From positions 1 to 48,433 of the forward strand of contig SLSY01000002.1 in NCBI GenBank assembly GCA_007130145.1: a DNA stretch of 48,433 nucleotides, read 5' to 3'. This DNA comes from Bacillota bacterium (GTDB taxonomy: Bacteria; Bacillota; Sulfobacillia; UBA8153). Made by a program: the position numbers and the translations under genes. Shown here piece after piece: positions 2,916 to 48,433 of this stretch. Numbering within the stretch: position 1 is the stretch's first letter; each line of letters starts with the position of its first letter. The notes under the pieces were generated by a model. It did not search any database, was not told the DNA's origin, and was given only the letters and a program-made list of their open reading frames with translations.

Positions 2916-3010
<95 letters not shown>

Positions 3011-3085: not shown

Positions 3086-3175
3086 TGGCGGAGGGGGTGG
3101 GATTCGAACCCACGGAGGGCGCAAACCCTCAACAGTTTTCAAGACTGCCGCAATCAACCGCTCTGCCACCCCTCC
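3086..3175 (-). tRNA. tRNA-Ser(TGA)
   Basis: Reverse complement GGAGGGGTG...GCAGT-CT-TGA-AA-ACTGT, long variable arm, T-arm, ends GCCA. Confidence 0.97.
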
Positions 3176-15034: not shown

Positions 15035-16396
15035 CTACGACTGTCGCCCCATGATCTCTTTCTCCAAGGATTGCACAGTTTCATGCAAGGAGGGGTTCCC
15101 TTTTATCTCTTTGCTAATCTTTTCGCAGGCATGGATAACAGTGGTGTGGTCCCGGCCGCCAAACTCCTCGCCGACGCGCGGCAAAGAAAAGGAAGTCAAT
15201 TCCCGGCAAAGGTACATGGCCACATGACGAGGGAACGACAAAGCCCGGCTGCGCTTTTTGGCTTTGAGATCCTCCACCGTAAGCCCATAGTAGTCGGCGA
15301 CATGCTTTTGGATGAGTTCCAAGGAGATAACGCGCGGGCGTTGATCCGGCAAAATATCGCGTAAAGCTTCCTTGGCCAGATCCACATCGATGGGGCGTGA
15401 GGTCAAGGAAGAGTAGGCTACGACACGAATCAAAGAGCCTTCCAGTTCCCGAATGTTCGTCTCAATGCTAAGGGCCACATAACCAATGACTTCCTCGGGA
15501 ATGGAGAGGTGCTGAGACTCGGCCTTCTTCCTCAAGATGGCGATGCGAGTCTCCAAGTCCGGGGGCTGGATATCAGCGATAAGACCCCATTGAAAGCGGG
15601 TGCGCAACCGTTCCTCCAGGGTGGAGATCTCCTTTGGGGGACGGTCACTGGACAGTACGATCTGTTTAGCAGATTGGTGAAGAGCATCAAAGGTGTGAAA
15701 GAATTCTTCCTGCGTGCTCTCTTTGCCGCCCACAAATTGAACGTCGTCTAAAAGCAACACATCAATGTTGCGGTAGCGGTTACGAAAATCCACGGTGCGT
15801 CCGTCACGAATAGCCATAATCAGCTCATTGGTGAAGGTTTCCGACGAAACATAGACCACTTTGATGCTAGGATTATTAAGATAAAGACAATGGCCAATGG
15901 CTTGCATCAGATGGGTCTTCCCCAGCCCTACGCCCCCATAAATGAAAAGGGGATTGTACGCCTTGGCCGGGGCTTCGGACACTGCTTCACAGGCGGCATG
16001 GGCGAATCGGTTTGAGGTACCCACGACGAAGGTGTCGAAGGTGTAGCGGGGATTGAGGGTGGTGGGCGGTTGGGTCCAGCGTGCTTTCTTCCCCCCGTTG
16101 GGATGCTCTTTGACGGCGATGTCACCGGGGGATGCAGAGGTATCGACCTCCAGAATACTGAAGGCAATGCCCACCTTCTGTCCGGTTATGTAACGCAAAG
16201 TCTTACACAGCATGGGCACATAGCGAGTTTCAATCCAGTCCTTGGTGAATTGGTTGGGGACAGCAATGGTGAGTGTATTCCCGTCGAAGTCCAGCGGCTG
16301 GGTGTTCTTGAGCCAGGCCTCAAAACTAGGTTTAAGCAGCTCCTTCTCCATTGCCTCAAGAGTTTGATCCCAGATATGACCCAAATCTGCATCCAT
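15035..16396 (-). CDS. dnaA: Chromosomal replication initiator DnaA
   Basis: LNPRYTFDTFVVG, YNPLFIYGGVGLGKTHL, LLLDDVQF, FGGRDHTTVIHA. Start placed at MDADL (16396). Confidence 0.98.
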   Translation of the reverse strand: MDADLGHIWDQTLEAMEKELLKPSFEAWLKNTQPLDFDGNTLTIAVPNQFTKDWIETRYVPMLCKTLRYITGQKVGIAFSILEVDTSASPGDIAVKEHPNGGKKARWTQPPTTLNPRYTFDTFVVGTSNRFAHAACEAVSEAPAKAYNPLFIYGGVGLGKTHLMQAIGHCLYLNNPSIKVVYVSSETFTNELIMAIRDGRTVDFRNRYRNIDVLLLDDVQFVGGKESTQEEFFHTFDALHQSAKQIVLSSDRPPKEISTLEERLRTRFQWGLIADIQPPDLETRIAILRKKAESQHLSIPEEVIGYVALSIETNIRELEGSLIRVVAYSSLTSRPIDVDLAKEALRDILPDQRPRVISLELIQKHVADYYGLTVEDLKAKKRSRALSFPRHVAMYLCRELTSFSLPRVGEEFGGRDHTTVIHACEKISKEIKGNPSLHETVQSLEKEIMGRQS

Positions 16397-16564
16397 AATG
16401 ACCGTACCATCCTCTCGAGGGATTGTAACCGTAGTCCTTCGCCCATTCAACTTCTGTATAAACAAAGGCCGTGCTAGCGACCCAAAAGGCGCTGTTCAGT
16501 AATCCAACAAGTCCTGTCTACGTGGGGTATGTATCTGTGTTGGTCTTCATAGACTTCTCACAAG

Positions 16565-20482: not shown

Positions 20483-22363
20483 GTGGAGGTTGTGGCTTCG
20501 TCAGACAAGACCTATGACGTGATTGTGGTAGGGACAGGCCATGCCGGCTGCGAAGCAGCCTTGGCCAGTGCCCGCATGGGTGCCAAGACACTGGCGTTGA
20601 CCTTGAATCTGGACAATATCGCGCTTATGCCGTGTAACCCAGCCATCGGGGGTCCGGGTAAGGGACACTTGGTGGCGGAGATACACGCTCTGGGTGGTGT
20701 CATGGGAGAAATTGCTGATGGTTCCGCCCTGCAGAGCCGCGTCTTGAATACAGGCAAGGGCCCGGCCGTTCAAGCCTTGCGCGTCCTCTGTGATAAACAT
20801 CGCTATCAACAGCTCATGCGCCGCCGTTTGGAGAATCAGCCCCTCCTTGACATCAAACAGGCTTTGGTCACGGAGATTCTCACGGATCATGGACGTGTGA
20901 CGGGTGTCCTCACGGCCACTGGCCTTTGCTATCGTTCCCATGCTGTTGTTTTGGCGACCGGAGTCTATCTGGAGGCACGGGTCATCACCGGGGAACATGC
21001 CCACCGCGCTGGACCCAACGGGCAGCTGGCGGCAGGGCATCTCGCCCGGCAGCTGGAAAGACTAGGCCTGCCCATGCGCCGTTTCAAGACCGGCACGTCT
21101 CCCCGGGTACATGCTGGCTCAGTGGACCTGGATAAGATGACGGTGCAGCCCGGTGAGCGCGAGCACCCCGGCTTTTCGGCCAGCTGGCGCCAAACCACGG
21201 CTCCGGCCGATTGCTATCTCACGTATACCACCGCCGAGACTCACGCTATCATCAATAGTAACCTGCACCGGGCTCCGCTTTATACCGGCAGTATTGAGGG
21301 AACAGGACCACGTTATTGCCCCTCCATCGAGGACAAGGTCGTGCGTTTTCACGACAAAGAGTCCCATCAGGTATTCCTGGAGCCGGAGGGAGAGTTTACC
21401 CAAGAGATGTACGTCCTGGGACTCTCCACCAGTCTTCCGGAGGAAGTTCAGCTGGCCATGCTCCACTCCATTCCCGGATGCGAACGGGCCAAAATCATGC
21501 GGCCGGGTTATGCCATTGAGTACGACTGTCTCGATCCACAGGAGATGACGCCTTCGCTGGAGTGTCGCTCGCGGGCGGGTCTTTACTGTGCTGGACAGAT
21601 CAACGGCAGTTCCGGCTACGAGGAGGCGGCCGCCCAAGGCTTGCTGGCCGGCATCAACGCCGTCCGCTCACTACGCGAAGAAGAGCCGGTGGTGCTCGGA
21701 CGTGATCAAGCCTATATAGGAGTGCTTATTGACGATCTCATCACCAAGGGAACAGATGAACCCTATCGTATGCTTACGGCCCGGGCAGAATACCGGCTAC
21801 TACTGCGTCAAGACAACGCGGATTACCGGCTGCTTCCTTTAGGCTTTCAATTGGGTCTGGTGGAGAAGGAGCGTTACGCTCAGTTTTGTTCAAAACGTGA
21901 TAAAGTAGACGATCTATTGCAGCGCTTGTCCAGCCGGCGACTGCGGGATAAAGAAAGCCTAGCCTTGGTAGAAGCCATGAAACAGGGGCGGGCCCATCCC
22001 GGCATGACCCTCGAAGAGGTGCTGCTGCGGCCCAATGTGTGCTGGGACGATATGCAGCGCATTGCCCCGGATCTTGTCGGAGTAGAGCGGGATGTTGCTT
22101 CTGAGGTTGTCTTTCGCGTCAAGTACCGGGGGTATCTTGAGAAGCAAGAGCGACAGGTAGAGCGGCTACGTAAACTGGAACACCGTAAGATACCGCAGGA
22201 CTTTGATTACGATGCCACCAAGAACCTGTCGTATGAGGCGCGGGAGAAACTCAAGCGACTGTGCCCGTCCACGGTGGGGCAGGCCAGTCGTATCAGCGGG
22301 GTCTCCCCCGCCGATGTGGCGATTCTTCTGGTCCAGCTGGACGCGAGAAACAAGCAATCATGA
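20483..22363 (+). CDS. mnmG: tRNA uridine-34 modification FAD enzyme MnmG (GidA)
   Basis: GTGHAGCEAA, MPCNPAIGG, RFKTGT, GPRYCPSIEDK, GQINGSSGYEEAAAQG. Confidence 0.98.
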   Translation: MEVVASSDKTYDVIVVGTGHAGCEAALASARMGAKTLALTLNLDNIALMPCNPAIGGPGKGHLVAEIHALGGVMGEIADGSALQSRVLNTGKGPAVQALRVLCDKHRYQQLMRRRLENQPLLDIKQALVTEILTDHGRVTGVLTATGLCYRSHAVVLATGVYLEARVITGEHAHRAGPNGQLAAGHLARQLERLGLPMRRFKTGTSPRVHAGSVDLDKMTVQPGEREHPGFSASWRQTTAPADCYLTYTTAETHAIINSNLHRAPLYTGSIEGTGPRYCPSIEDKVVRFHDKESHQVFLEPEGEFTQEMYVLGLSTSLPEEVQLAMLHSIPGCERAKIMRPGYAIEYDCLDPQEMTPSLECRSRAGLYCAGQINGSSGYEEAAAQGLLAGINAVRSLREEEPVVLGRDQAYIGVLIDDLITKGTDEPYRMLTARAEYRLLLRQDNADYRLLPLGFQLGLVEKERYAQFCSKRDKVDDLLQRLSSRRLRDKESLALVEAMKQGRAHPGMTLEEVLLRPNVCWDDMQRIAPDLVGVERDVASEVVFRVKYRGYLEKQERQVERLRKLEHRKIPQDFDYDATKNLSYEAREKLKRLCPSTVGQASRISGVSPADVAILLVQLDARNKQS

Positions 22364-23076
22364 AGCTCAAACGAGTAGAGAAGACGCTGGCCGGGTGGGG
22401 GCTTACTCTTTCCCGACAGCAACTGCAAAAGCTAGACCGCCTCATCTTCATCCTTGCCCAGCAAGGATTCCCGCACAGCTCCATCGCCCATGCTGAGGAG
22501 GCCGAAATCAAGCATGTCATTGACTCCTTGGCCTGCATGCGCATTTGGACCCCTCCCCCCCATGCGAGCCTTCTGGATGTAGGCTCAGGTTCCGGTTTTC
22601 CCGGGTTGGTGTTGAACGTTGCATGGCCCACCACGCGGGTGACGTTGCTGGATGCGGTGGGCAAGAAGATTGATCATCTTCGCGATATTTCCCGGGCATT
22701 AGAACTCGACGACGTGAGCACCGTTCACGCCCGTGCCGAAGATCTGGGCAGAGAATCATCTTACCGGGAGTCTTTCGATGCTGTCACGGCACGGGCGGTG
22801 GCAACGACCGCCGTGTTGGCTGAGCTGTGTCTTCCCCTGGTGCGGCTCGGCGGGGTGTGGTTGCTGATGAAGGGACCCTCCGGGCCACAAGAACTGGATG
22901 AAGCTCGCGGGGTCCTTGCTACGCTCGGGGGACAAGTCGAAGATGATATGTGTTTTGATCTGCCCTGCGAACAGGGTGTTCGGTACCTCGCTCGCATCCG
23001 TAAAGTTGACCATACCCCCACACGATATCCGCGCCGCGCGGGGAAGCCCCAAAAAAGACCCCTCGAATTGCCATAA
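22360..23076 (+). CDS. rsmG: 16S rRNA m7G527 methyltransferase RsmG (GidB)
   Basis: KHVIDSL, LDVGSGSGFPG, ARAV, YPRRAGKP. ATG 22360 overlaps the mnmG stop. Confidence 0.95.
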   Translation: MKLKRVEKTLAGWGLTLSRQQLQKLDRLIFILAQQGFPHSSIAHAEEAEIKHVIDSLACMRIWTPPPHASLLDVGSGSGFPGLVLNVAWPTTRVTLLDAVGKKIDHLRDISRALELDDVSTVHARAEDLGRESSYRESFDAVTARAVATTAVLAELCLPLVRLGGVWLLMKGPSGPQELDEARGVLATLGGQVEDDMCFDLPCEQGVRYLARIRKVDHTPTRYPRRAGKPQKRPLELP

Positions 23077-23133: not shown

Positions 23134-23979
23134 GTGGCGCGGGTGCTACGAAGAGGGCAGATGCGCGGCAAACTCAAGAAAGAAAGCAGTTACACCGTGT
23201 TGAACTTAGCGGTTGAGTCCATCTTGTTTAATCCGTACCAACCACGCAAGACAGAAGTGGGCCGAGATATTGATGAGTTGGCCGCATCCATCCGGCAGCA
23301 CGGAGTGCTGCAACCGGTCGTGGTGCGAAGAGTGGGCCGGGGGTACGAATTGATAGCCGGTGAACGGCGGCTCAGGGCCTGCAAGCAGGCGGGCGCTAAA
23401 ACTATTCCTGCCATCGTTCGCTCGGTGGGCGATGAAGAGCTGGCCCTCTTGGCGTTGGTGGAGAACTTGCAGCGCCGGGGTTTGAACGTGCTTGATGAAG
23501 CGGAGGGATACCGTAGCCTCATGAGCAAGTTTGCGCTCACGCAGGAGGAAATTGCAGCACAAGTGGGAAAGAGCCAACCCACCATCGCCAACAAACTTCG
23601 ACTGCTCAAACTCCCTGGTGCCGTGCAGGAAGAACTGCGACGAGAGGCGCTAACCGAGCGGCATGCTCGTGCCTTGCTCAGATTACCTTGTGACAAGCAG
23701 CAGCTGGAGATCATGGAGACGGTGCTTGCTGGCAACCTCAATGTGGCTCAAACCGACGAACTGGTGGATGAGGTAACCAAGGAGGCTTCACCCCATCCCC
23801 CGGTCAAGCGACAGCGGGTACGTGTTTTCAAGGACCTGCGCATCTTCCTCAATTCGTTCCGTCAGGTAGTGGCGGCACTGAGGCGCACGGGGGTAGAGGC
23901 GGTCATGGAAGAGGATGAGGATGAACGTTGCTGGCGCATTCAAGTCAGTATCGCCAAGCCCGGCGAGAAAGGGGTCTAA
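23134..23979 (+). CDS. noc: Nucleoid occlusion protein Noc (ParB paralogue)
   Basis: NPYQPR, GERRLRA, ENLQR; HTH GKSQPTIANKLRLLKL...ERHAR with Noc-type Q/K/K/R residues; C-terminal KDLRIFLNS; position between rsmG and soj. Start uncertain (ATG 23161 possible). Confidence 0.88.
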   Translation: MARVLRRGQMRGKLKKESSYTVLNLAVESILFNPYQPRKTEVGRDIDELAASIRQHGVLQPVVVRRVGRGYELIAGERRLRACKQAGAKTIPAIVRSVGDEELALLALVENLQRRGLNVLDEAEGYRSLMSKFALTQEEIAAQVGKSQPTIANKLRLLKLPGAVQEELRREALTERHARALLRLPCDKQQLEIMETVLAGNLNVAQTDELVDEVTKEASPHPPVKRQRVRVFKDLRIFLNSFRQVVAALRRTGVEAVMEEDEDERCWRIQVSIAKPGEKGV

Positions 23980-24067: not shown

Positions 24068-24153
24068 GAAAGTCTCTCAGGATAGAAAACAGGGAAGCAC
24101 GGCGACCTTGCCGAAAGAGCGAGGGAGTATGAAACAGTAGGAGGGAGGACGAA

Positions 24154-24198
24154 GTGGATAGAGTTATCGCCATTGTGAACCAAAAGGGCGGAGTAGGG
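24154..24198 (+). CDS. parA: ParA/Soj exon 1 (MDRVIAIVNQKGGVG)
   Basis: GGAGG RBS, GTG start, 15 codons matching the Soj N-terminus and the first half of the deviant Walker A; ends exactly at the intron GTGCG. Confidence 0.95.
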
Positions 24199-25885
24199 GT
24201 GCGTCCGAGATGGTTCGCGTTGCAGTGCCCTGAGGGGTCGCCGATGAGAGCGAGATCGGTGTGACTGTCCGGCTCCAGCTGCAGTCGAAAGGCTATTTTA
24301 GCAGCGAACATAGCATGCCGGAAGGGGGGGAGCCCAGCGCTTGCCCGCCTCTTTGCAGTCAAGGTACAGCATGGTGAAGGCCGGATTGCTTGAACTCTAG
24401 TTTCCCAGCCCAAACCGCCGGGAACACCCGAATGGATCGGGTGTTGGGAGTGGTCTGCGAGACAAGTCCCTGCTTGCCTCGTACGCTCTGACCCTCCTCA
24501 TACGCAGGATGATTGCGTGAGGGAAACGGACGGAGCACCTACACTGTACGGGAAGTCATTCTGTGCGCGAGCTAACCGGAGATTGCCTAACGTGGAGACG
24601 TTTCATCAAGGCAACGGAGTCCTCATAGTAGTCGGAGAGCGGGAAAGCCGCTTACAACCTGCTTGTGCAGGGCCCTCTGGGGCGGGCGAAGGAGGACAGG
24701 TCACCGGGTGACCCGAGAACTACGGAGGTATGCGAAATGCAAAGAGCTGAAGTGGTCCTGGGGGCCCTGAGAAGAAATGCCGAGAAAGAAGGATTTGTGT
24801 TTTCCAGGGTCTACCGCTACCTTTACAACCCCGGGATGTACCGGGAAGGCGTTAGAGCGCGGGTGGATGAGTTGGGGGACCAGCTGAGAGCAGAGCGTTA
24901 CTATCCAGCAGGTAGAGAAGAAGACGCATGGGTAGAGGAGGCAGTGATGTGCCTGCTTGAAGCCATGTTCCCTCAAGAGCGCGACGATGCTGACACCAAT
25001 CGGTGGGCGCAGGTAAAGGCCTCACCAGAGTGTCGCTGGGCCTTGCGCTATGATATCGAAACTGCCTGCGATGGATGGCACGCTCTCTATCGCCTACTCG
25101 GCCCCCACCTGCAGGATGGGCGTTTTTGGGAGTTGCTGCACCGGTTTCACTTGTTTCAGGGCAAGGACGGGAGAGTGGCAAAGATGCTGAAGCGACTTGC
25201 CTGTGGGAGGCTGCAAGCGTCTATGCAGGCCATGCATCCTGCAACCAGGCGTTTCATCGAGGGGCATGAGGTCCTCTTTTTGGGACGTGTGGAGTCCAGC
25301 ATGAACCAGCAACGCGCTGCTATCGAGAACGTCGCCGGGGCCAGAGGAGTGGATGTCAAACTGGAGATCGCAGCGGATATCCGCCGGGGAAGCGTCCGGC
25401 TTGGCCCCTATGCGGTGAGAGCCGGCCGCCGGCGTTGCTTTCTCCTGATTCCGGGAGACTCCCTGCGGCGGTGGCGGCGGCCATTCACCTACCGCGGTCA
25501 TCCCGCTGCCCGCAACGATCGTTTGTACCTGACAGCCTCCAGGATTGTCCAGATCTACCGGCAAGAACTGACAGCATGGTTTCAGACATTCCGCGAGGCA
25601 GATAACCTGCGCGCAAGGCTGAGGGAGTTTCACTTCTATCATGGCCAAAGCCTTCTGAAGACCTTGGCCAAGAAGGATGGACTGTCTCTCAGGCAAGCAG
25701 CTGCCAAGTACCGGGTGCTTCAAGACCGTGATGAAGGTAGAGCGGGCCTTTCAGGGGGAGACCAGCACAGTTTCTATCCGTTACAGATTCGGCAGCTTTT
25801 CTCAGCGTGACGGGAGAGCCGGGTGCATTGAAAGGTGCATGCCCGGTTCGGAGGGGGGTTGAGCGACCGCCTTGATCTACCCTAC
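24199..25885 (+). mobile_element. Group IIA (mitochondrial-like lineage) intron interrupting parA
   Basis: 5' GTGCG; 3' ...CCCTAC; DV 25816-25849 GAGCCGGGTGCATT-GAAA-GGTGCATGCCCGGTTC with AGC triad; DVI with bulged A25879, 7 nt from the end; EBS1, EBS2 and delta complementary to the exons; excision restores KGGVGKTT in frame. Confidence 0.96.
24737..25810 (+). CDS. Intron-encoded protein: degenerate RT-derived maturase, 357 aa, no YADD, no endonuclease
   Basis: GGAGG RBS at 24724-24728. LtrA-like blocks: FSRVYRYLYNP (RT0), LRAERYYP (RT1), DAWVEEAVMCLLEAMFP (RT2), WALRYDIE (RT3), LQDGRFWELL, and X-domain-like IVQIYRQEL...SLLKTLAKK. Located in intron domain IV. Confidence 0.88.
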   Translation: MQRAEVVLGALRRNAEKEGFVFSRVYRYLYNPGMYREGVRARVDELGDQLRAERYYPAGREEDAWVEEAVMCLLEAMFPQERDDADTNRWAQVKASPECRWALRYDIETACDGWHALYRLLGPHLQDGRFWELLHRFHLFQGKDGRVAKMLKRLACGRLQASMQAMHPATRRFIEGHEVLFLGRVESSMNQQRAAIENVAGARGVDVKLEIAADIRRGSVRLGPYAVRAGRRRCFLLIPGDSLRRWRRPFTYRGHPAARNDRLYLTASRIVQIYRQELTAWFQTFREADNLRARLREFHFYHGQSLLKTLAKKDGLSLRQAAAKYRVLQDRDEGRAGLSGGDQHSFYPLQIRQLFSA

Positions 25886-26644
25886 AAAACGACGACAGCG
25901 GTCAATTTGGCAGCCGCTTTGGCTGAGGCTGGCAAGAGGGTCCTGGTGGTGGATATCGATCCGCAAGGCAATTCCACAAGTGGCCTGGGCCTGGATAAGC
26001 GCGAGATTACGCAGTGTATTTATGATGTACTCATCGAGGGTCTGCCGCTGACTCAAGTTGTGTGCAAGAGTGCTTCTGCCGGCGTTGATGTGGTGCCGGC
26101 GCGGCTGGATCTAGCTGGTGCCGAGGTTGAGTTGGTCTCCATGATAGCCCGGGAGAGCAAACTCAAAGGAGCGCTGGGAACGGTTGGTGGCCAGTATGAC
26201 TTTCTTCTCATCGACTGTCCCCCGTCTCTCGGCTTGCTTACGGTCAACGCACTCACAGCGGCCGACTCCATTTTGGTGCCCATCCAGTGCGAGTATTACG
26301 CCCTGGAGGGCTTGGGGCAGCTGATGAACACCATCAAACTCGTGCAGACACACCTAAATCCCCGGCTTGTTTTGGAAGGGGTGGTGCTGACGATGTTTGA
26401 TGGTCGTACCAATCTCGCCATGCAGGTTGTTGAGGAGGTAAGGCGCTTTTTCCGTGGAAAGGTATATGGCACGGTGATCCCGCGCAATGTCCGGCTGAGC
26501 GAGGCGCCCAGCTTCGGGCAACCCATCATTGCGTACGACGGGAAATCCAGGGGTGCCCAAGCATACCGGGAATTAGCAAGGGAGGTCCTGCAGCATGGCC
26601 AGGAAGGGGCTGGGCAAGGGGCTCAAAGCCCTGATGCCAGATGA
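25886..26644 (+). CDS. parA: ParA/Soj exon 2 (spliced product 267 aa)
   Basis: KTTTAVNLAA, DIDPQGNST, IDCPPSLG, PIQCEYYALEG, IPRNVRLSEAPS. Confidence 0.96.
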   Translation, partial: KTTTAVNLAAALAEAGKRVLVVDIDPQGNSTSGLGLDKREITQCIYDVLIEGLPLTQVVCKSASAGVDVVPARLDLAGAEVELVSMIARESKLKGALGTVGGQYDFLLIDCPPSLGLLTVNALTAADSILVPIQCEYYALEGLGQLMNTIKLVQTHLNPRLVLEGVVLTMFDGRTNLAMQVVEEVRRFFRGKVYGTVIPRNVRLSEAPSFGQPIIAYDGKSRGAQAYRELAREVLQHGQEGAGQGAQSPDAR

Positions 26645-27431
26645 GGTAGAATCCAACCAAGCAGTTGGAGCCAGCGAACTTAATATTGAGGAGATACGAC
26701 CCAATCCCTACCAACCGCGGCAGCGCTTTGACGGAGAGGGCATGAGGGAACTGGTGGAATCCATCCGGCAACACGGTGTGGTACAACCTGTCCTGGTGCG
26801 CAGTGACGGTGACGGGTATCAAATCATAGCCGGGGAGAGACGTTGGCGGGCTGCGCAGCAGGCGGGACAGAAGCGCATCCCCGTTGTGGTGAAGGAATGC
26901 ACTGAACAAGAGATGATGGAGATAGCGTTGGTGGAGAACCTCCAGCGTGAGGATCTGAATGCGCTGGAGGAAGCCATGGCGTATCGCCGCTTGTTGGAAG
27001 AGTTCTCCTTGACCCAGGAACAAGTGGCGGAGCAAGTGGGGAAGAGCCGGTCGCAAGTGGCCAACACCTTGCGGCTTCTCCAGTTGCACCCCATGGTACA
27101 GGAGATGCTCGAGAAGGGAGACCTGTCACCAGGGCATGCAAGAACGCTCTTGGCCATAGGAGATGGATCAGCGCAGGTGAAAATGGCGCAGCGGGTGGCC
27201 CAAGAGGGCCTTAACGTTCGCCAACTGGAGAACCTCATTCGTTTGGGAGCGCGCCGGCCACCGGTGCGGAGGGTTCCGTCTCCCGATCTGCGGTATGTGC
27301 AAGACAGGATAGGAGAGGCCTTGGGCACGCAAGTTCAGATTACTGGAGAGAAGAAAGGGGTCATCAAGATTCGCTTCCATTCCCCCGAAGATTTGGAGCG
27401 GCTCATGGAGCTCTTGTTGGATGAAAACTAG
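26595..27431 (+). CDS. parB: ParB/Spo0J
   Basis: GLGKGLKAL N-terminus, NPYQPR, GERRWRA, ENLQREDLN, GKSRSQVANTLRLL, GHAR. Confidence 0.96.
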   Translation: MARKGLGKGLKALMPDEVESNQAVGASELNIEEIRPNPYQPRQRFDGEGMRELVESIRQHGVVQPVLVRSDGDGYQIIAGERRWRAAQQAGQKRIPVVVKECTEQEMMEIALVENLQREDLNALEEAMAYRRLLEEFSLTQEQVAEQVGKSRSQVANTLRLLQLHPMVQEMLEKGDLSPGHARTLLAIGDGSAQVKMAQRVAQEGLNVRQLENLIRLGARRPPVRRVPSPDLRYVQDRIGEALGTQVQITGEKKGVIKIRFHSPEDLERLMELLLDEN

Positions 27432-48358: not shown

Positions 48359-48433
48359 GCGAGAGTAGTTCAGCGGTAGAATATCGGCTTCCCAAGCCGA
48401 GGGTCGCGGGTTCGAATCCCGTCTCTCGCTCCA
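48359..48433 (+). tRNA. tRNA-Gly(CCC)
   Basis: GCGAGAG acceptor stem, TCGGC-TT-CCC-AA-GCCGA anticodon arm, GGTTCGAATCC, ends TCCA. Confidence 0.96.

Follow-up and report, generated by a model that had tools for sequence, protein, structure and literature searches.

Introduction

How does a bacterium make Soj when the P-loop codons of its soj gene lie on either side of a group II intron? The question is raised by a stretch of 48,433 nucleotides (nt) from a soda-lake member of the Bacillota (GenBank assembly GCA_007130145.1, contig SLSY01000002.1; hereafter the window). In this stretch, the chromosomal soj gene is split in phase 0 between the Gly and Lys codons of its Walker A motif (KGGVG/KTT) by a group IIA intron. 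In the textbook view, bacterial group II introns are selfish retroelements and stay out of housekeeping genes. Introns that only splice, with proteins that have decayed, are considered a peculiarity of organelles. A first-pass annotation of the window proposed that functional Soj depends on RNA splicing at this locus, as in organellar genes. In this study, we compared the locus with its counterparts in other genomes. The results make it very likely that the element is a resident group IIA intron of the Ll.LtrB type (mitochondrial-like, ML), which occupies the P-loop codons of soj, only splices, and encodes a decayed protein presumed to be a maturase.

Results

The split soj gene

Exon 1 of soj (24154-24198, plus strand) has 15 codons with a GTG start, reads V/M-DRVIAIVNQKGGVG and ends NQKGGVG, its nucleotides ending GGAGTAGGG at 24198. 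A Shine-Dalgarno-like GGAGGGAGG (24140-24148, plus strand), read from the sequence, precedes the GTG. The intron occupies 24199-25885 on the plus strand (1687 nt; 5' GTGCG, 3' CCCTAC, i.e. ...CUAC). Exon 2 (25886-26644, plus strand) resumes with AAA ACG ACG (KTT) and comprises 252 codons, with the stop at 26642-26644. Computed from these frames, the spliced Soj has 15 + 252 = 267 amino acids (aa). The unspliced read-through frame ends at TGA 24262-24264 and forms an open reading frame (ORF) of 36 aa. The exon and intron boundaries and the spliced length are those given by the first-pass annotation, each element being found at the bases named there, and the ORF list bears out its read-through stop and 36-aa peptide.

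Exon 2 matches Pfam AAA_31 (200 bits, from profile position 15) and CbiA (87 bits). It is without only the stretch before KTT, and the missing part is exactly what exon 1 supplies. The deviant Walker A motif KGGxGK[ST] is present in the window soj only across the splice junction. A ParA-type ATPase domain and a placement by parB near dnaA were both found for this gene.

The window is contig C220 of a metagenome-assembled genome (MAG) of 258 contigs and 2.37 Mb, estimated to be 96% complete. The lack of a spare parA, claimed earlier for the window, holds genome-wide: no second soj was found in the MAG, the sole other ParA-like gene being 27% identical. Five other carriers of the intron were checked, and none of the five had a second soj (next-best ParA-like match at most 34% identical).

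The same site in other genomes

The same insertion site, with both boundaries, was found in 19 genomes: all three of the window's family, 15 of the Melghirimyces order and one Heliobacteriaceae MAG. The 19 introns are 1628-2513 nt long, and each stands after a 15-codon exon 1 with a start codon and before KTT. The Melghirimyces-order carriers also include Laceyella, Paludifilum and Shimazuella, and several carriers are cultured non-pathogens (Melghirimyces algeriensis DSM 45474, Paludifilum halophilum DSM 102817, Laceyella putida and Shimazuella soli). Between exon 2 of the window and its counterparts in the other intron-bearing soj genes, identity is 59-77%.

The two other genomes of the window's family have homologues of the intron ORF (32-35% identity), both in an intron between GGAGTAGGG and AAGAC (KTT) of soj. 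A wider search, in which species-representative genomes were scanned with the three-protein alignment and then by tblastn, regular expressions and Rfam, added five: M. algeriensis, L. putida, P. halophilum, S. soli and the Heliobacteriaceae MAG. Eleven further loci, fetched after a census, brought the total to 19 fully bounded introns.

The census pattern consisted of the Walker A codons plus the exact GTGCGTCCG (21 bases). The reversed pattern, as a control, gave 0 matches, and a positive genome always had one match. The pattern was present in 7 of 14 genomes of the Melghirimyces family, 22 of 53 of its order and 14 of 401 in an even sample of its class. It was also present in three of nine genomes of the order of the Heliobacteriaceae MAG and in one of 401 sampled from the window's phylum, which was the window itself. 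Because the pattern demands the exact GTGCGTCCG, diverged introns are missed. Positives by the 21-base match alone are G1003, G1004, G1005, G1010, G1013, G1014 and G1015; for G1022 and G1023, the inspection covered the 5' 1.5 kb.

When the window's class was searched with the intron-protein profile, 22 of 210 genomes had any match. Only three matches were full-length, all in the window's family (three of three genomes), and no full-length homologue was found in the other 207 genomes. The remaining matches are short or partial, mostly at profile positions 67-152; Rfam places one that was checked, L017, inside a group II intron.

The intron-less relatives fix the exon junction independently. In all ten pattern-negative relatives checked, five from the Melghirimyces family and five from other families of the window's class, soj reads an uninterrupted KGGVGKTT. 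The survey of parA in relatives proposed at first pass has thus yielded intron-plus alleles (19 bounded) as well as intron-minus alleles.

Ribozyme core and exon recognition

The group II identity of the element, asserted at first pass, is recognised by Rfam. Domains V and VI (25814-25885, plus strand) match RF00029 over the full model (1-77) with 62.5 bits (cut-off 40) and an E-value of 5e-10. The match reaches exactly to the proposed 3' splice site, its final base being that of the intron, and has a bulged A at 25879, the branch-point candidate. RF00029 scored 59-64 bits in all introns and ended at the splice site in 19 of 19. The GUGYG 5' and AY 3' termini of the window intron are likewise those of all 19. 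The Rfam D1-D4 models gave no match to the window intron, even at E-values up to 1. For domains I-III, RNAalifold on the 5' 500-570 nt of the 19 introns returned 137 pairs. Of these, 102 have compensatory changes, meaning that in one or more introns both partners have changed and still pair.

Common to the 19 introns is a hairpin about 270-280 nt from the 5' end with a loop 6-mer complementary to the last six exon bases. In the window, this hairpin loop of domain I (24467-24473, plus strand) holds the delta base U24467 and exon-binding site 1 (EBS1; CCCUGC, 24468-24473). EBS1 pairs with intron-binding site 1 (IBS1; GUAGGG, 24193-24198, plus strand), which consists of the Walker A Val and Gly codons. 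The match is six of six in 14 introns and five of six in five. Over the alignment, 93.0% of 114 EBS1-IBS1 cells are paired, against 77.9 +/- 2.3% when shuffled (0 of 500 as high) and 40-54% when slid. These cells come from a MAFFT alignment of the 19 introns (A2), in which row L093 is shifted by two columns at the cost of a few EBS1-IBS1 cells. The pair at the splice site, the third base of the Gly codon, is AU in five introns, CG in five, GC in three and UA in three; that at the third base of the Val codon is GC in six, AU in four, CG in two, UA in two and GU in one.

A second pairing joins EBS2 (CCGCC, 24415-24419, plus strand; A2 columns 247-251), also in a hairpin loop of domain I, to IBS2 (GGCGG, 24187-24191, plus strand) in two Walker A Gly codons. 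Across the 19 introns, 90.5% of the cells of this CCNCC/GGNGG pairing are paired, against 26-59% when slid, and its single variable pair, the middle one, is CG in nine, AU in three, UA in three and UG in one. A U before EBS1 and an A as the first base of exon 2 are found in 19 of 19, which is the IIA delta-delta' arrangement. The earlier group IIA call is borne out by this arrangement and by the intron protein family, whose best relative of solved structure is LtrA, the protein of the Lactococcus lactis intron Ll.LtrB. At the silent third bases of the Walker A codons, exon changes co-vary with changes in EBS1 and EBS2, which indicates that the RNA is under selection to recognise its host exons.

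Another candidate for EBS2, pairing with exon positions -22 to -16 (CAATCAG/CTGATTG), was rejected; its position differs between introns and it fails in several. In the Heliobacteriaceae MAG (L051:2444-2455), exon 1 ends GCC, which gives a spliced KGGVAKTT, and EBS1 has its mismatch at that base. Two loci of the same order (L224 and L225) have GGA (Gly) and a perfect EBS1. In 17 of 19 introns, the in-frame codons begin GUG CGU CCG UAA, with a stop in fourth place (A2 columns 22-24; window 24208-24210), so a ribosome running on from exon 1 would stop at once. The exceptions are L090 (UAC) and the window (GAG), where the frame continues for 21 codons to the TGA at 24262.

The intron-encoded protein

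The intron ORF of the window (24737-25810, plus strand) encodes a protein of 357 aa derived from a reverse transcriptase (RT), a presumed maturase without an RT active site. Its ribosome-binding site (RBS) GGAGG (24725-24729, plus strand) lies seven bases upstream of the ATG. No interruption of the ORF was found in any of the 18 readable introns, where it encodes 353-582 aa. The protein of the Heliobacteriaceae MAG (L051) was left out of the alignment and tree on account of a run of N, leaving 18 rows, the window and 17 readable homologues.

These proteins form a decay series that begins with an intact RT and ends with the window protein, which has become unrecognisable to Pfam. The S. soli protein (L048; 582 aa) has all RT motifs with YADD and matches RVT_1 with 124 bits. 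It is followed by those of P. halophilum (499 aa, YADH, 99 bits), M. algeriensis (445 aa, YAHQ, 44 bits) and L088 of genome G220 (441 aa, YADE, 40 bits). Neither an RT active-site motif nor an RVT_1 match was found in the proteins of L. putida (L046), L093, L089, L090, L094, L043 and the window (353-503 aa). YADD is kept only in L048 and L051, and a relative in the order of L051 reads YEDQ. In the alignment, the window protein has GHEV at the YADD columns and is without motifs 1 and 4 and the C-terminal tail. The RT motif series 0-7 with YADD is thus incomplete in it, and DNA-binding and endonuclease domains are absent, the chain stopping some 30 residues past domain X. A remnant of the DNA-binding/endonuclease part, with CxxC, is kept in L048 alone. 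The maturase domain PF01348, of organellar type, was found in nine of ten proteins scanned (the exception being L043), and the window protein does not match it.

Domain X/thumb is present: positions 260-327 of the window-family profile align with LtrA 414-480. LtrA is the best solved relative of this profile (E-value 2e-10), in three collinear pieces covering the N-terminus, motifs 2-3 and domain X. It is also the top PDB match of the S. soli protein (E-value 8e-117 over 6-553 of 582 residues). The LtrA matches and the PF01348 domain of the relatives, rather than a reference-class tree, assign the intron protein to the ML clade. AlphaFold modelled the window protein from a 50-sequence alignment with a predicted local distance difference test (pLDDT) of 89.8 and a predicted template modelling score of 0.81; helices 267-285 and 291-313 were modelled with high confidence. 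A 3-sequence alignment gave a useless model (pLDDT 43.7). The top Foldseek matches of the model are group II intron RT/maturases in ribonucleoproteins (8t2r_D, 6ar1, 8fli and 6me0; template modelling score about 0.57), and the window protein is accordingly predicted to keep the RT/thumb fold.

As far as sequence can tell, the soj intron has every testable group II intron feature, and the window intron lacks the YADD and endonuclease features of an active RT retroelement.

A search of 1.84 billion representative proteins returned 621 relatives at E-values of 1e-3 or less and 38 at 1e-30 or less; many of these relatives have 340-460 aa and full-length matches. Matches to the intron protein were confined to the soj locus in four of five other genomes checked. 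L. putida has several other group II RTs (38-47% identity) and S. soli one partial RT (38%). In the Laceyella group (L046, L091 and L092), the intron ORF extends into domain V, giving ...WRAGYIERCTSGSEGG, and in L046 it continues to the last intron base, so that coding sequence and ribozyme core overlap.

Discussion

How Soj would be made

In the mechanism that we propose, soj would be transcribed together with its intron, and the 357-aa protein would be made from its own GGAGG-ATG in domain IV and help the ribozyme to fold. EBS2, EBS1 and delta would hold the exon bases GGCGG, GUAGGG and A(+1), and A25879 would attack the 5' splice site. The exons would then be joined as GGAGTAGGG-AAAACGACG, restoring GGG-AAA and the 267-aa Soj. 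The comparative evidence points to such splicing in vivo. Since the RT active site and the DNA-binding/endonuclease tail are lost, the intron is probably no longer self-mobile; it would persist by vertical inheritance as a resident that only splices, in the manner of organellar introns. It reads P-loop codons (GGN GGN GUN GGN/A) that the protein keeps near constant, which might explain the same site in distant Bacillota.

Comparison supports the claim of the first-pass annotation that Soj depends on splicing. No spare soj exists in the window's genome or in the five other carriers, and the intron-less relatives have KGGVGKTT at the junction. EBS and IBS co-vary, and the ratio of nonsynonymous to synonymous substitutions (dN/dS, by the Nei-Gojobori method) in soj exon 2 is 0.03-0.08. 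Because the site is common to many genomes and the intron ORF is no longer an RT, the organelle analogy is stronger than was claimed at first.

Several points weigh against this interpretation. The window's 357-aa protein has no Pfam or NCBIfam match (no RVT_1), and its presumed maturase role is deduced from homology to LtrA and from conservation. Its terminal branch is 3.19 changes per site, and the dN/dS of the intron ORF within the window's family (0.37-0.42) reflects weaker constraint than in other clades. As an RNA, the window intron is the most diverged of the 19, its EBS1 hairpin loop is shorter, and its bases 10-15 are GAGAUG where 17 of 19 introns have UAAGGG-like sequences. One EBS1-IBS1 mismatch occurs in each of five introns, and delta-delta', being invariant, fits the model yet gives no co-variation evidence. 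The estimated contamination of the MAG is 2.87%, and none of the public sequencing runs searched holds the soj locus as RNA.

It is conceivable, if rather doubtful, that splicing is itself a regulated and useful step that sets the Soj:Spo0J ratio through ribozyme or maturase activity, and that the intron is kept for it. Soj would then be made only after maturase-assisted splicing, and the upstream ParB-family gene and spo0J would need none. The activity would depend on Mg2+, temperature and growth phase, and the Soj:Spo0J ratio would affect DnaA control and, in spore-forming carriers, entry into sporulation. Such a role would explain the survival of the intron over family-level times after its mobility was lost.

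It is unlikely that the intron splices alone or by host factors and that its ORF is a functionless, decaying relic. The protein of the window's family does evolve fast (47% and 35% identity, with the dN/dS given above) and has shrunk to 357-370 aa. However, the ORF stays open in all 18 readable introns with dN/dS below 0.45, the range being 0.22-0.42 against the much lower values of soj exon 2, and the intron-ORF pairs used for this were all without YADD. Conservation is highest in the X/thumb block (YRxEL...F.HYH..SLLKTLA.KE) and in the N-terminal block, and the predicted fold has the high pLDDT reported above. The columns just before the ATG of the ORF (GGAGGnATGCGnA) are invariant or nearly so in the 19 introns. 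This block around the RBS may be the binding site of the maturase, perhaps comparable to domain IVa of Ll.LtrB.

A dead intron in a soj pseudogene, with neither splicing nor Soj, is very improbable. The failure of the window protein to match a Pfam family, the EBS1 mismatches of five of 19 introns and the lack of the locus as RNA among public runs would suit it. Against it, the start codon of exon 1 is kept and exon 2 is open in 18 of 19 loci, that of L. putida (L046) being broken only by a second intron. Exon 2 is under the strong constraint noted above, EBS1 and EBS2 track silent exon changes, domains V and VI score 59-64 bits in every intron, and no other soj was found in six of six genomes.

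Still less credible is that the window intron is an active selfish retroelement, recently inserted by retrohoming. Its relatives in S. soli (L048) and the Heliobacteriaceae MAG (L051) retain YADD, and the patchy presence (22 of 53, 3 of 9 and 3 of 3 genomes) needs transfers or many losses. Against recent activity stands the window protein itself, with GHEV at YADD and neither RT motifs 1 and 4 nor a C-terminal tail. Moreover, the window's genome has one copy each of the intron and its ORF, and a tblastn query with the Shimazuella protein revealed no further ML-type protein there. The intron is also present in all three genera of the family, with proteins 32-35% identical and synonymous divergence (dS) equal to that of soj. 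For the intron ORF and soj exon 2, respectively, dS is 0.148 and 0.110 in the pair L091-L092, 0.477 and 0.399 in L085-L086, 0.624 and 0.510 in L085-L087, and 1.135 and 0.926 in L043-L044. The dS of the intron ORF thus tracks that of soj, as co-divergence with the host gene predicts. In the intron-protein tree (a quick method; 18 rows, L051 excluded), the window's family is one clade (98*) and the remainder is not resolved. Of the tree's 15 inner branches, only four are starred, and four of the end branches are very long. The number of invasions of the site is therefore not countable from this tree. The pattern suggests that RT-competent forms invaded the site a few times and that the intron then descended vertically, its RT decaying and some copies being lost.

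An assembly artefact, in which a chimeric contig of this 258-contig bin joined soj to an unrelated intron, is refuted by contigs of three separate runs that bridge the junctions and by the same architecture in 18 other genomes including isolates. The public DNA runs that hold the soj stretch are soda-lake and alkaline-sediment metagenomes, of which X1 may be the source sample. DNA contigs of four runs were used, some bins being without cover in X2-X4. The 5' junction is bridged by contigs of X1, X3 and a diverged strain in X2, and the 3' junction by an X1 contig (4293 nt and 669 nt in X1, 298 nt in X3 and the diverged 207 nt in X2). A direct exon-exon join was absent from all contigs of the DNA runs checked. 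The isolates among these carriers have contigs of 0.3-3.5 Mb. The locus is thus real, which settles the artefact that the first-pass annotation had named as its possible undoing. The X2 strain, from another soda-lake sample, has 12 differences in 138 bases over the 5' junction (window 24137-24274), including two silent exon changes at 24177 and 24180, and the intron is present.

Comparison with known systems

By analogy, the soj intron resembles Ll.LtrB in exon recognition and the chloroplast trnK/MatK system in lifestyle. Ll.LtrB of Lactococcus lactis (IIA, ML) is alike: it recognises its exons by EBS1, EBS2 and delta, its ORF lies in domain IV, its 5' end is GUGCG and its domains V and VI have the same form. 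Its protein LtrA has 599 aa, is active as an RT and includes DNA-binding and endonuclease parts; the intron is mobile and resides in a plasmid relaxase gene. The window protein differs in having 357 aa and neither YADD nor the tail, and its host gene is the chromosomal soj. Group II introns are also found in housekeeping genes in cyanobacterial cases and in recA of Geobacillus kaustophilus. These too lie inside a conserved cellular gene and need splicing for gene function. To our knowledge, they carry intact RT ORFs.

According to the parts of the review by Zimmerly and Semper (2015; PMC4424553) that deal with location, bacterial introns mostly lie outside housekeeping genes, and some ML and chloroplast-like introns reside in them. 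Its section 9 presents O.i.I2, in radC of Oceanobacillus iheyensis, as the sole bacterial intron with a degenerate protein known as of 2015 (PMC4424553). As described there, O.i.I2 resembles the soj introns in its ML class, lack of YADD, open ORF and location in a cellular gene (PMC4424553). Compared by description, it is a single case in radC, whereas the soj family comprises 19 introns at one site with graded RT decay and co-variation with the exons. The same section treats the chloroplast trnK intron with MatK and the plant mitochondrial nad1 intron 4 with MatR as IIA introns in essential genes with vertical inheritance, whose proteins have lost RT motifs and kept domain X (PMC4424553, section 9). 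Two soj intron proteins gave weak MatK_N matches, below the cut-off. Unlike in these organellar cases, the host here is a free-living bacterium with one intron of the family per genome, whereas MatK serves several introns. A literature search, at record level apart from PMC4424553, turned up no description of an intron within either soj or parA.

What would be new here is a housekeeping gene of free-living bacteria that houses an intron which, as in organelles, only splices. One intron lineage occupies the catalytic P-loop codons of a core gene of chromosome segregation and DnaA control in at least 19 genomes. Together, its members amount to a natural time series of how an intron is domesticated in free-living bacteria, and the RNA tracks silent changes of the host exons throughout. 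How a mobile element becomes a host-dependent intron, a question usually confined to organelles and the origin of spliceosomal introns, might now be approached experimentally in the cultured carriers. Gene callers will label such soj genes as truncated, Walker-A-less or pseudogenes.

Neighbouring genes and further observations

The gene order around the locus is dnaA (minus strand), mnmG, rsmG, a ParB-family gene, soj and spo0J, so that ParB genes flank soj on both sides. The dnaA gene, from the ORF list, lies at about 15035-16465 (minus strand; Pfam Bac_DnaA at 15575-16057, 247.6 bits), and soj is origin-proximal because dnaA is about 7.7 kb away. The ORF at 20483-22363 (plus strand; ORF list) is, judged from its sequence, presumably mnmG. 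It is followed by rsmG/gidB (22261-23076, plus strand; ORF list; GidB Pfam match, 124 bits). The ParB-family gene upstream of soj (23134-23979, plus strand; Pfam ParB_N and HTH_ParB) is in the noc position and is presumably noc, a name taken from the Bacillus gene order. Downstream, spo0J/parB (26595-27431, plus strand; ORF list) matches Pfam ParB_N, HTH_ParB and ParB_C. Its ATG at 26595 lies 50 nt inside the end of soj (26595-26644). Soj and Spo0J are probably translated from one RNA, and on this arrangement an unspliced RNA could yield Spo0J yet no Soj. Rfam found three tRNA genes unrelated to the locus, at 2922-3010 and 3089-3175 (minus strand) and 48359-48430 (plus strand).

Elsewhere in the window's genome (G000), there are five more domain V/VI matches (C258:2149-2203, C142:6512-6588, C129:1281-1351, C105:2734-2805 and C235:2889-2949). 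Four are above the Rfam cut-off and that on C235 is below it; by tblastn, none of the five encodes a protein of the soj-intron family. A junction-pattern scan of metagenomes was also tried. Among the 80 matches listed, one (L140) is a soj junction and 79 are GC-rich chance matches, so the scan supports no inference on abundance in metagenomes.

The soj gene of L. putida (L046:4401-7200; L223) contains a second group II intron 26 codons after the first, in the DIDP/QGN motif. It starts GTGCGCAC. Its Rfam matches are to RF02004 in domain I and to RF00029 at 7080-7193 of L046; the exon resumes with QGNTTSG about 60 nt past the latter match. This intron differs in class from that of Walker A and is absent from the close relatives L091 and L092.

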